From Chloroflexia bacterium (GTDB lineage Bacteria; Chloroflexota; Chloroflexia; DTKN01): a stretch of 28,951 nucleotides of DNA. The notes under the pieces are model-generated. The model was given only the letters and a program-made list of their open reading frames with translations. It was not told the DNA's origin and ran no database searches. Shown here piece after piece: positions 2,836 to 11,917 of this stretch; positions within the stretch are counted from its first letter, which is position 1; the number at the start of each line of letters is the position of its first letter. The stretch lies in assembly GCA_049969155.1 (NCBI GenBank), contig JBMFPK010000001.1, positions 1-28,951 of the forward strand, given 5' to 3'. Position numbers and translations under genes: made by a program.

Positions 2836-4554
2836 TCACAGGTCGCCCAGGACCGATCGGACCTCCGTGGGGTCAAAATCGAATCGGAGGCCGAGCGGGG
2901 GCAACGGTTCCTCCTGGAAAAAGTCCGGAAGCGCGTCGTGCTCGGGCCCGTACCCCACCGTGCGGTTGTACTCCCGCTCGCGCCGCAGCGTCTCCTGTGC
3001 CAGGGAAAAGAGCATCTCCTGGCTCCAGGAACCGCCGCAGTGGGCGTCCAGGAGGTCGGTCAGGAGCGTCCAGTCCGCCAGGATCGGAGCGCGGGTGAAC
3101 CAGCACAGGCCAAGGGTGTCGAAGATGGTCGCCAGGTGCTGCAGGTAGCGCGAGAGCTCCACCTGCCGGTCCCGGAGGTGCGGGTCAGGCTTGGTGCCGT
3201 CCGGGAGCGCACTCCCGGGCAGACAGTTCCCGGCCGTGTGGTCGGCGCCCATTGGGGAGGTAGCGTAGGTCAGCCCTGTGCCCTTGAGCGCGCGCGGATC
3301 GTAGGCCGGCATGCCTTGTCCCTTGACCTGAGGGACACGCCGCACGCCGAAGACGCGGCCCGTAACCGCCGCGCCTTGCCCGAGGACGCGTCCCAACGGC
3401 GTCCCTTGGGCGACTTCCTCCAGCAGGGCGAACGCGCCGGGCCCGTCGCCGAAGGCAAGGAGGCCGGCCTCCATGCAGACGCCGAGCGTCACGCCCATTT
3501 CCATCGTGTCCAGGCCAAGCTCATCGCAGCGGCGGTTCAGCCGGGCGAGCATGTCCAGATCCCCGATGCCGCAGTTCGACCCCAGGAGGACGATGCTCTC
3601 GTACTCGAAGCCGCGCGTCAGTTCGTTCCCCTCCGGTCCGGGGTAGGTGTTCGAACAGCGGATCACACAACCCGGCATGCAGGGGTGTGTCGGCCGCCCC
3701 TTGCGTTCCACGATCGTGTTGTAGAGCGCCTGGCCGTCGATGCGCGCGGCTTCCTCGAACTCGCCTTGTCGGAAGTTCCGCGTGGGAAGGCCTCCTAAGG
3801 CGTTGATCACTGAGACCAGGGCTGCGGTCCCGAACCGGGGGAGCGACTGCCCGGTCGAGGGGTGGGCGAGGAGTGCCTGTGCGAAACGACGCCGGGCAGC
3901 GGCGAGTCGTTCCGGATCGGCAGAGGTCTGCACCGGGGCATCCGTCGGCTCGATGACGATCGCCTTCAGGCCCATGCTGCCCATCACGGCTCCCAGGCCG
4001 CCGCGGCCGGCGTTGCGCGTCGGCAGACCGTCGATGTCGCTGGCGGCCACGTTCGCAGCGGCCAGGCGTTGCTCTCCGGCGGGGCCGATGCACAGGATCC
4101 CGACCTTCGGGCCGAACCTTTCCAGGAGCGCGGCGCTGGTTTCGTAGGTGTCGTGCCCTGCGAGGTCGTCCGCGGGCAAGAGGTCGATTCCGTCGCGGTG
4201 CACGTGGGCGAGCAGCCACTTTCCTTTCTCCGCCTGCCCGCCGAAGACGATCGCCCGGATGCCTAGCCGTGCGATCATCTGGCCAGGGCGGCCCCCGGTG
4301 TTGCTCTCTTTGATCCCTCCTGTCAGCGGGCTCTTTGCCCCGACCGAAAGCCTGCCGGAGGAGGAGGCCCCGCTTCCCCCGAGCAGGCCCGGCGCAAGGA
4401 CGAGTCGGTTCTTCTCTCCCAGGGGCCAGGCCGAGGGGGGGACCTCTGCGCTCACGATGGCCGAGGTGAGGCCGCGACCTCCGAGCCGTTCCCAGGCCGC
4501 GGGAAACGGCTCGCACTGCACCCGTTTCGAAGCGATGTCGACGCGATAGATCAT
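2836..4554 (-). CDS. aor: Aldehyde:ferredoxin oxidoreductase family protein (W/Mo-pterin, 4Fe-4S)
   Basis: 572 aa; LGGRGL, KSPLTGGIKESNTGG, IGPAGE, GRGGLGAVMGSMGLKAI, CMPGCVIRC plus distal LGLC, FEYES, DELGLD, YATSPMGADH. Confidence 0.92.
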   Translation of the reverse strand: MIYRVDIASKRVQCEPFPAAWERLGGRGLTSAIVSAEVPPSAWPLGEKNRLVLAPGLLGGSGASSSGRLSVGAKSPLTGGIKESNTGGRPGQMIARLGIRAIVFGGQAEKGKWLLAHVHRDGIDLLPADDLAGHDTYETSAALLERFGPKVGILCIGPAGEQRLAAANVAASDIDGLPTRNAGRGGLGAVMGSMGLKAIVIEPTDAPVQTSADPERLAAARRRFAQALLAHPSTGQSLPRFGTAALVSVINALGGLPTRNFRQGEFEEAARIDGQALYNTIVERKGRPTHPCMPGCVIRCSNTYPGPEGNELTRGFEYESIVLLGSNCGIGDLDMLARLNRRCDELGLDTMEMGVTLGVCMEAGLLAFGDGPGAFALLEEVAQGTPLGRVLGQGAAVTGRVFGVRRVPQVKGQGMPAYDPRALKGTGLTYATSPMGADHTAGNCLPGSALPDGTKPDPHLRDRQVELSRYLQHLATIFDTLGLCWFTRAPILADWTLLTDLLDAHCGGSWSQEMLFSLAQETLRREREYNRTVGYGPEHDALPDFFQEEPLPPLGLRFDFDPTEVRSVLGDL

Positions 4555-4579
4555 GTCTTGCCCTCCCGAAGGGTCGAGG

Positions 4580-5599
4580 CTAGGGCTGTAGGATCACCTT
4601 CACAGCCTGCCGCTCCCGCATCAGCCGCAGGCCCTCTTCCAGCTGGTCGAGTGGAAGCACATGCGTGATCATGGGCGCGGTGGTCAGCTTGCCGCGCGCA
4701 AGCAGCTGCAAGCTTTCCTCAAAGTCCTCCCACGAGTAGCAGAAACTGCCCACGACTTGCAGTTCTCGGCGCACGATCGTGGCGGGGTTGAGGGTCACCG
4801 AGTCGTGAAAGATCCCCAGGAGCAACACGCGGGCGCCCTTGCCGGCGCAGGCCAGCTCGAGCGGAAGGGCGGCCGCGCTGCCGGTTGCCTCGATGACGAC
4901 GCTTCCCATCCGTCCTCGGGTCCATTCTGCCACCCGTGCGACGGCATCCTCCTCCGGGACGCACACCGTGTGGTCCGCCCCGAGCTCTCGGGCGATCTCG
5001 AGGCGGGCGCGGTCCTCGGGGCGACCGACGACGATCGTGCAATGCGCCCCCCGGGCGCGGACCGTTTGCAGGGCGTACAGGCCGATGGGGCCGGGGCCAA
5101 AGATGACCACAGTATCCTCTACGTTGACCCCGATCTTGCGCACCCCCCGGTAGGCCGAGGCGATGGGGTCCACCGAAGCGCCGTCCTCGAAGGAAAGGTT
5201 CTCCGGAAGGCGATGGAGGCAGGATTGCGGGACAGCGACATACTCCGCATAGGCGCCGTTCACGTGGATGCCCAGTTCCAGGATGTTGTCGCACATCGGT
5301 TCGTTGCCGACCCGGCAGTATGGACACCATCCGCATCCCTTGACCAGGCCGACGGCCACCCGATCGCCTACCTGCCATCCCTGGACTTCGCTCCCGACCT
5401 GGACGATCTCCCCGGCGAACTCGTGCCCTGGGATGAGCCCGCGCGGCACTTCCCGTCGTCCATCGAAGATCGGAAGGTCGGTCCCGCAGATCCCGACGGC
5501 CCGGACGCGCACCAGGACCTCGCCCGCCTGGGGCTTGGGCTGGGGGACCTCTTTCCAGACAAAGCCTGGTCCCGGCTCCTCTTTGACCGCCGCTCTCAA
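4580..5599 (-). CDS. Zn-dependent alcohol dehydrogenase (MDR family, threonine/sorbitol dehydrogenase-like)
   Basis: 339 aa from TTG at 5599, after GGAGG and overlapping the upstream stop (TTGA). GICGTD, GHEFAG, CGWCPYCxxxxxxxC structural Zn site, DP third-ligand motif, GPGPIG. The 583-aa ORF-track version includes a spurious N-terminal extension. Confidence 0.9.
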   Translation of the reverse strand: MRAAVKEEPGPGFVWKEVPQPKPQAGEVLVRVRAVGICGTDLPIFDGRREVPRGLIPGHEFAGEIVQVGSEVQGWQVGDRVAVGLVKGCGWCPYCRVGNEPMCDNILELGIHVNGAYAEYVAVPQSCLHRLPENLSFEDGASVDPIASAYRGVRKIGVNVEDTVVIFGPGPIGLYALQTVRARGAHCTIVVGRPEDRARLEIARELGADHTVCVPEEDAVARVAEWTRGRMGSVVIEATGSAAALPLELACAGKGARVLLLGIFHDSVTLNPATIVRRELQVVGSFCYSWEDFEESLQLLARGKLTTAPMITHVLPLDQLEEGLRLMRERQAVKVILQP

Positions 5600-11492: not shown

Positions 11493-11599
11493 TTTCTTCC
11501 TCCTTGCTTGCTCTAGAAGAAATCCCCGCGCTTGGCTTCGCGAGACGTCGAGCTTCACCTCCTTTCATGCCTTTCGGAACCTCGCCGCAAAGACTGCCC

Positions 11600-11917
11600 C
11601 TACAGGGTCGGTTTCCTCATCCTCTCCGTCTGCCGACGGAGGAAGCCGTCCAGCGTGGCCAGTAGAAGCCCCATCTGCTGTTGCAGAGCGAGGGAGGGGA
11701 GTTGCAGGCTCAGCAAGCGCGGAAAATCCATCCGGTGCACCGCGGTGATCCCTTGCTCCAGAAGGCAGTGCGTCGCATCGATTGCGAGGTCTACGAGGTA
11801 AAACTCGACGTCCACATGCAGAGGTCCGGCGCGAACGTCGCGGATCAGGGAAGGATACCGGGTCTGGAGTTGCTTCAACCGCCCAAGCAGCTCGTCGAGC
11901 TCCAAAGAGAAGCACAT
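11600..11917 (-). CDS. Hypothetical 105-aa Leu-rich protein, first gene of the catabolic operon
   Basis: ATG preceded by GGAG; GC-rich third codon positions as in flanking genes; lies right after a consensus promoter; no family recognised. Confidence 0.6.
   Translation of the reverse strand: MCFSLELDELLGRLKQLQTRYPSLIRDVRAGPLHVDVEFYLVDLAIDATHCLLEQGITAVHRMDFPRLLSLQLPSLALQQQMGLLLATLDGFLRRQTERMRKPTL

Follow-up and report, generated by a model that had tools for sequence, protein, structure and literature searches.

Organization of the locus

The DNA analysed here (hereafter the window: 28,951 nucleotides (nt), contig JBMFPK010000001.1 of assembly GCA_049969155.1) is contig C1 of G000, the 2.7-Mb, 94% complete genome of a hot-spring-type Chloroflexota bacterium; its two congeners are labelled Chloroflexia metagenome-assembled genomes, and comparisons within the genus cover these three genomes. 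Downstream of a PucR-family regulatory gene the minus strand carries an operon of nine intact genes, which encode a protein of 105 amino acids (aa; orf105), a LivKHMGF-type ABC importer, a class III aminotransferase (AT), a Zn-dependent medium-chain dehydrogenase (ADH) and an aldehyde ferredoxin oxidoreductase (AOR). The first gene, orf105, is a free-standing counterpart of the C-terminal (small) domain of PatA-type aminotransferases and lies behind a conserved palindrome; the enzymes that follow suggest that an omega-amino acid is degraded here with the AOR in the position usually held by an NAD(P)-dependent dehydrogenase. The features are listed below, where the loci counted are the 21 related loci with an orf105 homologue that were available for comparison of this neighbourhood.

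12063..13739, minus strand: PucR-family activator (Pfam domains; next to orf105 in 16 of 21 loci)
12001..12015, palindromic, no strand: operator TGTGCA-N3-TGCACA (kept in 21 of 21 loci)
11939..11967, minus strand: sigma-70-type promoter TTTACG-17-TAAAAT (equivalent boxes at equal spacing in 17 of 21 loci)
11600..11917, minus strand: orf105, 105 aa, stand-alone PatA-type class III aminotransferase C-terminal (small) domain
10275..11492, minus strand: LivK-type lipoprotein binding protein (closest solved relative SAR11_0655, 8WCH)
10214..10274, minus strand: stable hairpin after livK (z -5.2)
9344..10213, minus strand: LivH permease (domain match)
8349..9347, minus strand: LivM permease (domain match)
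7624..8352, minus strand: LivG ATPase (domain match)
6927..7631, minus strand: LivF ATPase (domain match)
5596..6900, minus strand: class III aminotransferase with a GABA-AT-type active site (domains, residue alignment)
4580..5599, minus strand: Zn-dependent medium-chain dehydrogenase (domains, zinc-site residues)
2836..4554, minus strand: single-subunit AOR/WOR large subunit (AFOR domains, active-site residues)
2765..2804, minus strand: intrinsic terminator-like 11-bp stem with U-rich tail (stem 2773-2804, z -2.7)

A first-pass annotation of this DNA had described a co-oriented, translationally coupled run of Liv importer, AT, ADH and AOR genes. The gene assignments and the common orientation stand, but the 105-aa first gene within the run had been left unidentified and the coupling is only partial. 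Four of the eight junctions overlap (LivH/LivM and LivM/LivG by ATGA, LivG/LivF by 8 nt, AT/ADH by TTGA), while the other four are gaps (orf105-LivK 107 nt, LivK-LivH 61 nt, LivF-AT 26 nt, ADH-AOR 25 nt), each with its own Shine-Dalgarno site. The hairpin between LivK and LivH may serve as an mRNA stabiliser or attenuator of the type found in ABC operons. The proposed limits of the operon, a promoter/operator and a terminator, are borne out by the conservation of the operator in all 21 loci and by the 11-bp stem, 10-nt loop and U-rich tail (z -2.7) that follow the AOR gene.

orf105 is a stand-alone aminotransferase small domain

Neither Pfam nor NCBIfam contains a family that matches orf105. 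The protein matches 38 clusters of 101-150 aa at 55% identity or more, and further members, with identities as low as about 25-30%, came from searching 1.8 billion representatives with a profile. At least 45 sequences contain an intact homologue with a start of its own, a number that is a lower bound for the family. The next profile matches beyond the family itself are the C-termini of PatA-like aminotransferases, and within G000 the best match other than orf105 itself is to the C-terminal part of the PatA encoded on contig C10. The profile aligns without gaps to residues 358-454 of E. coli YgjG (E 0.003), whose C-terminal domain comprises residues 354-455 (PMC4244111). The AF2 model of orf105 (pLDDT 93.8) has YgjG as its best Foldseek match (TM 0.82) and superimposes on the class III small domain with a VIA Z of up to 14.0 and an rmsd of 2.1 A over 101 residues. 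A direct BLAST comparison of orf105 with the AT of the operon gave no match, so that the link to PatA is seen by profile and structure only.

While orf105 has the fold of the small domain, it has neither the pyridoxal phosphate (PLP)-binding domain of class III enzymes nor their catalytic Lys and Arg. Because that domain is missing and the Arg that binds the keto-acid carboxylate (R426 in YgjG) is replaced by Ser70, the protein cannot transaminate. An initial resemblance to restriction S subunits was dropped after the fold searches, and longer matches from the family search, considered as possible fusions, turned out to be ordinary PatA-like aminotransferases or fragments; no fused forms of 260-2000 aa were found, which is weak evidence in itself. 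Besides G000, 400 evenly sampled genomes of the phylum were searched for the gene without a match, as were six further genomes of the family. To our knowledge, this small domain otherwise occurs only within fold-type I PLP enzymes, and no stand-alone version was found in the literature searched, which included few subscription papers. Judging from profile and model, orf105 thus appears to be a member of a hitherto undescribed family of stand-alone PatA small domains.

It could be argued that orf105 is a decaying, functionless remnant of a truncated PatA gene, as no other gene of the operon is so poorly conserved (70-75% identity between congeners, compared with 82-95% for the others) and one related operon, L187, lacks it. 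The values of dN/dS, however, are 0.17 in comparison with the congener locus L001 and 0.10-0.11 among the loci L112, L114 and L115, similar to those of PucR, albeit with saturated dS, which indicates a functional protein rather than debris. Together with the intact reading frames, the spread of the family and the confident model, this largely refutes such an origin in decay, which we regard as very improbable.

The PucR regulator and its putative operator

The regulator comprises PucR, GAF/CodY-like, GGDEF-like and helix-turn-helix domains according to Pfam; the PucR ligand domain and the C-terminal HTH_30 place it in the PucR family, and it is the product of the sole PucR-domain gene found in G000. 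By sequence match alone the promoter call is weak, since sites resembling TTTACG-17-TAAAAT occur three times in 14 kb compared with 1.0 expected, but it is strongly supported once the conservation of the operator is taken into account. The perfect palindrome TGTGCA-N3-TGCACA lies upstream of the promoter, its centre 41 nt before the -35 box. It is retained at 11 or more of its 12 positions upstream of the orf105 homologue in all 21 loci, a level reached by 0.2% of shuffled sequences, and in 17 of them a recognisable -35 box follows its centre at a distance of 41-42 nt. Neither the palindrome nor orf105 was found near 29 more distant PucR paralogues, and five loci retain both in the absence of an adjacent PucR gene. 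Since most PucR-type proteins act as activators and recognise inverted repeats (PMC7652997), we infer that the palindrome is the PucR site, in the position expected for activation. Three further exact copies of the core GTGCA-N3-TGCAC in G000 (C84:5878, C6:11307 and C190:3336) are apparently intragenic and probably due to chance.

Variant cassettes under the same control

The synteny search suggested by the first-pass annotation recovered the full order PucR-orf105-Liv-AT-ADH-AOR in the congeners (L001 and L004/L118, 82-95% identity) and in two distant metagenome loci, L117 (50-66%) and L131/L139 (55-67%), the L139 copy having a CaiB gene downstream of AOR. The cassette ATs group with those of loci L002 and L003 in a supported clade (100/99), and the AORs form a clade of their own (99), separate from the other AORs of G000. 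Variant loci retain PucR-orf105 and differ in the transporter, AT and oxidase. Loci L112-L115 combine PucR-orf105 with kal-kce-kdd genes, a Liv importer, an ADH, a different AT and a CaiB transferase. The kal-kce-kdd genes, which score above the NCBIfam cut-offs, are inserted between orf105 and livK in cassettes of the Anaerolineae type (L112 10345-12636; also L113-L115, L124, L125 and L128-L130). In these sister cassettes LivK is 69-73% and ADH 67% identical to the proteins of the window, while the AT belongs to a different subfamily (33% identity) and the CaiB proteins match succinate-glutarate CoA-transferase best, below its cut-off. Under the same regulator and operator, L138 carries a PotD-like importer with an aldehyde dehydrogenase (ALDH) resembling aminobutyraldehyde dehydrogenase, and L140 an AT with methylmalonate-semialdehyde dehydrogenase (MMSDH). 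In L141 a full-length PatA gene diverges from PucR-orf105.

Locus L002 (910-14863) encodes an orthologous AT, a related AOR, an Lrp regulator, a corrinoid protein, an MttB-family methyltransferase and MetF, as well as CaiB, an acyl-CoA ligase, a thiolase, an acyl-CoA dehydrogenase and electron transfer flavoprotein; these genes may constitute a pathway for an N-methylated omega-amino acid. On contig C19 of G000 (L191, ~6880-9430) a CaiB transferase with 83% identity to that of L112 over 111 aa lies beside a class III aminotransferase that has Glu at the position of the catalytic lysine (FGEG) and Asp in place of the FHGR arginine, possibly a pseudo-aminotransferase.

Possible roles of orf105

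In every locus orf105 is the first gene past the operator. Its pairwise divergence follows that of PucR (rho 0.86) more closely than that of AT (0.44), with the reservation that the locus pairs are not independent and that co-variation is confounded by physical adjacency. A predicted complex of PucR (residues 1-540) with orf105 scored 0.02, which is no answer and counts neither for nor against an interaction. Of the possible roles of orf105 we tentatively favour that of a regulatory accessory or feedback protein tied to PucR. It is tempting to go further and to propose a new class of regulator accessories, in which a freed PatA small domain would act as ligand sensor or feedback modulator of PucR and so control amine-catabolic operons of Chloroflexota, several of them using a dedicated ferredoxin-linked tungsten AOR; this wider proposal may hold, though we consider it doubtful.

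Alternatively, the target of orf105 could be class III aminotransferases or what they produce; it would then be either an assembly or inhibitory factor for PatA or AT, or a small binder or hydrolase of the cyclic imine that omega-aminoaldehydes form. A class III AT is present in every long locus, PatA itself adjoins PucR-orf105 in L141, the PatA of contig C10 is the best non-self profile match, and polar residues on the open face of the sheet are conserved. However, the adjoining AT switches subfamily at least four times while orf105 is retained, the divergence of orf105 follows PucR better, and H61, Q72 and S75 are lost in distant members of the family, which disfavours a fixed catalytic site. 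On balance, we find an aminotransferase-directed role somewhat unlikely. As a side observation, one protein (P0064) is a natural fusion of an aldehyde dehydrogenase fragment with a PatA-like aminotransferase.

The aminotransferase, the importer and the likely substrate

The AT possesses the full set of class III catalytic residues (E223, D251, Q254, K280, T309 and R406). Its R145 and I53 align with R141 and I50 of E. coli GabT, and it has Gly at the position of Phe327 of YgjG. The PatA signature (Lys183, Phe91, Phe327, Leu419) is missing, with R145, I53 and Gly in its place, and the AT falls into a clade apart from PatA. In the putrescine aminotransferase YgjG, Lys183 occupies the position of the carboxylate-binding Arg (PMC4244111). 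Since R145, I53 and Gly make up the pattern of gamma-aminobutyrate (GABA) aminotransferases, the amino donor is probably an omega-amino carboxylic acid. On account of R145 we rejected a diamine as the direct substrate, and amino alcohols are likewise unlikely donors; the earlier proposal of omega-amino acid, diamine or amino alcohol catabolism is thus narrowed to the first of the three as far as the direct donor of the AT is concerned.

In LivJ, a Thr and a Glu bind the alpha-amino group of the ligand. According to our alignment these residues appear to be missing from LivK, which would make ordinary alpha-amino acids unlikely ligands. Among solved structures, LivK is by far closest to SAR11_0655 (8WCH; E 5e-66, the next match being at 7e-22), an L-pyroglutamate-binding protein (PMC11485210). 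Because lysine-fermentation genes and glutarate-type CoA-transferases are found in the sister cassettes, 5-aminovalerate or a different derivative of lysine is our preferred guess, followed closely by GABA.

The same cassettes lend themselves to a different interpretation, in which the substrate is a hydroxylated or beta-amino derivative of lysine or carnitine (such as 4-amino-3-hydroxybutyrate or beta-lysine), with the ADH acting on its secondary alcohol or keto group and AT and AOR on the terminal amine. The ADH is most similar to threonine dehydrogenase (TDH) and sorbitol dehydrogenase types; the kal-kce-kdd cassettes share closely related LivK and ADH proteins with the window; and in L002 the AT orthologue and the related AOR are found with a corrinoid protein and an MttB-family methyltransferase. 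On the other hand, the AT of the kdd cassettes is the distant one, and neither BKACE nor lysine 5,6-aminomutase was found in the genus, although the control of one of these searches also gave no match. We consider such a substrate unlikely.

Contig C10 of G000 (L190, 4647-6440 and 12272-19206) contains a second AOR gene near the PatA-like putrescine aminotransferase gene, together with genes for putrescine carbamoyltransferase (above cut-off), a nitrilase-like protein and transporters of the peptide and Liv types. This polyamine catabolic cluster could feed the operon of the window.

The AOR and the redox context

The AOR consists of AFOR_N and AFOR_C domains and has T243, E319, Y418 and H439 together with Cys 292, 296, 300 and 484; Thr, Glu, Tyr, His and the cysteines are the residues of P. 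furiosus AOR named for aldehyde-oxidising tungsten-type oxidoreductases (WORs; PMC13328260). With ADH upstream and the terminator downstream, the operon has no genes for small FeS, flavin or membrane subunits, and the absence of a partner subunit makes the enzyme a Class I WOR. The first-pass annotation had placed the AOR in the slot usually filled by an NAD-dependent dehydrogenase. This agrees with the clade formed by the cassette AORs, with the Aldedh-family enzymes of L138 and L140, and with the failure to find succinate-semialdehyde dehydrogenase (SSADH/GabD) above its cut-off in the three genomes of the genus; the alternation of AOR and NAD(P)-type ALDHs within one regulon type supports a replacement. 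No aminotransferase context is mentioned in the WOR survey (PMC13328260), and we found nothing on oxidation of 4-aminobutyrate semialdehyde by an AOR, on AT-AOR coupling or on WOR clades with aminotransferases in the literature searched, again with few subscription papers covered.

It may be objected that the AOR is a general aldehyde detoxifier added to an ordinary GABA-type operon, the flux passing mainly through the ADH to a hydroxy acid or through an unlinked ALDH. Detoxification is the role given to most Class I WORs (PMC13328260), the AOR gene is the variable last gene of the operon and is absent from L112-L114, and G000 encodes two unlinked ALDHs, which resemble lactaldehyde dehydrogenase and MMSDH. 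Against this stand the co-inheritance of a dedicated AOR clade with the cassette over about 40% divergence and the presence of ALDHs in the AOR slot of other loci, so that we hold the detoxifier to be quite unlikely.

The ADH has zinc-site residues C38, H59 and D144 and structural C89, C92, C95 and C103; Gly-Arg instead of Asp in its cofactor loop suggests the use of NADP(H). TupA-like tungstate binders are encoded in both congeners, and MoeA is present. The pathway had been proposed to be anaerobic; strict anaerobiosis is not established, because a COX1-family gene is present in all three genomes. In G000 this divergent gene (C241, 2457-3931) is broken by a TAG codon, but it gives one undivided match in each congener. 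AOR-family genes number 8-9 in the 2.7-Mb genome of G000, 4-11 in other members of the family and 0-1 in most other genomes of the class.

As for the surroundings of the operon, the patatin-like, FdhD-like and STAS anti-anti-sigma genes past the terminator (458-2530, minus strand) were rejected as members, since the terminator intervenes and they are absent from L117 and L139 where this region is visible; their position is kept within the genus only. Directly upstream of PucR lies a Zn-ribbon/Nudix hydrolase-GNAT fusion (13764-14741, minus strand), kept in the congeners. Farther away, a 1034-aa protein (23498-26602, plus strand) contains at least five GAF-like repeats and ends in a STAS (RsbR-like) domain.

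Proposed pathway and its implications

We propose the following scheme. In the presence of an amine ligand PucR would bind TGTGCA-N3-TGCACA and turn the operon on. The Liv-type ABC system would take up a small amino-carboxylate other than an ordinary alpha-amino acid, most likely 5-aminovalerate or GABA, possibly 6-aminohexanoate or another lysine derivative, and the AT would strip its terminal amino group to yield a semialdehyde. In place of GabD or DavD, the single-subunit, presumably tungsten-type AOR would oxidise the semialdehyde to a dicarboxylic acid with reduction of ferredoxin, while reduction to the hydroxy acid by the NADP(H)-type ADH could serve as an overflow or to balance redox. 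The product of orf105, a domesticated and catalytically dead PatA small domain, might serve the regulon as an accessory or feedback protein.

We regard the pathway from PucR-activated import through transamination and AOR oxidation, with the ADH side branch, as moderately probable, and several observations weigh against the scheme. The functions of AT, AOR and ADH, the ligands and expression are predictions from sequence. The AT scores below the GabT cut-offs (TIGR00700, 380 bits against 507; best model PRK05769, 498 against 552), and neither it nor the ADH passes the cut-off of any NCBIfam model. The closest solved structure to the AT is archaeal PH1423, which we take to be an ornithine/lysine omega-aminotransferase, and amino-acid racemases score nearly as high. 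As the best matches of the ADH, threonine and sorbitol dehydrogenases, act on secondary alcohols, the enzyme may instead use a hydroxylated substrate. No ferredoxin gene is present in the operon, G000 has 8-9 AORs to choose from, and TupA was not found in its 94%-complete assembly. The tie between orf105 and PucR is subject to the confounding by adjacency described above, and in L187 a PucR of the same subclade (47% identity) heads an AT operon that has no orf105, so that orf105 is dispensable in some contexts.

A physiological role has been defined for only 5 of 92 WOR clades (PMC13328260), and the regulated operon of the window offers a direct substrate hypothesis for one more. It suggests that low-potential electrons can be harvested from the breakdown of omega-amino acids. 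The conserved, free-standing dead small domain tied to one PucR subclade would, if its proposed role is true, be a clean instance of an enzyme domain put to new use in regulation. The operator, the promoter, PucR and orf105 form a compact system that could be rebuilt in a laboratory strain.

Comparison with known systems

The families of the individual components are already known, as is the logic of GABA control by PucR, for which C. glutamicum GabR is the precedent (PMC7652997). Like the operon of the window, the GabR-gabTDP system combines a PucR-family activator and inverted repeats with a class III GABA-type aminotransferase operon and a transporter (PMC7652997). In contrast, the present regulator includes a GGDEF-like domain, the operators differ, GabP gives way to an ABC importer and GabD to AOR with Zn-ADH, and an additional small-domain gene heads the operon.

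Omega-amino acids are transaminated and then oxidised by GabT and GabD in E. coli and by DavT and DavD in Pseudomonas. The AT of the window has the substrate residues of GabT and the operon follows the same logic of transamination and subsequent oxidation, yet the AT scores under the GabT cut-offs, and it is a ferredoxin-type AOR, in place of an NAD(P) dehydrogenase, that would carry out the oxidation. P. furiosus AOR (1AOR) is likewise a single large subunit with Thr, Glu, Tyr, His and four Fe-S cysteines (PMC13328260), from which the AOR of the window differs by its ~35% identity, its CxxxCxxxC spacing and its location within a ligand-regulated catabolic operon. LivK departs from SAR11_0655 in its binding-loop residues, and the operon lacks pxpABC. 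Finally, orf105 shares its fold and a gapless profile alignment with the C-terminal domain of E. coli YgjG/PatA (PMC4244111), but without the N-terminal domain, the PLP-binding domain and the equivalent of Arg426. New in comparison with these systems is above all the stand-alone PatA small-domain family with its operator, neither of which turned up in the literature searched; the pairing of AT and AOR is a variant likewise not described there.

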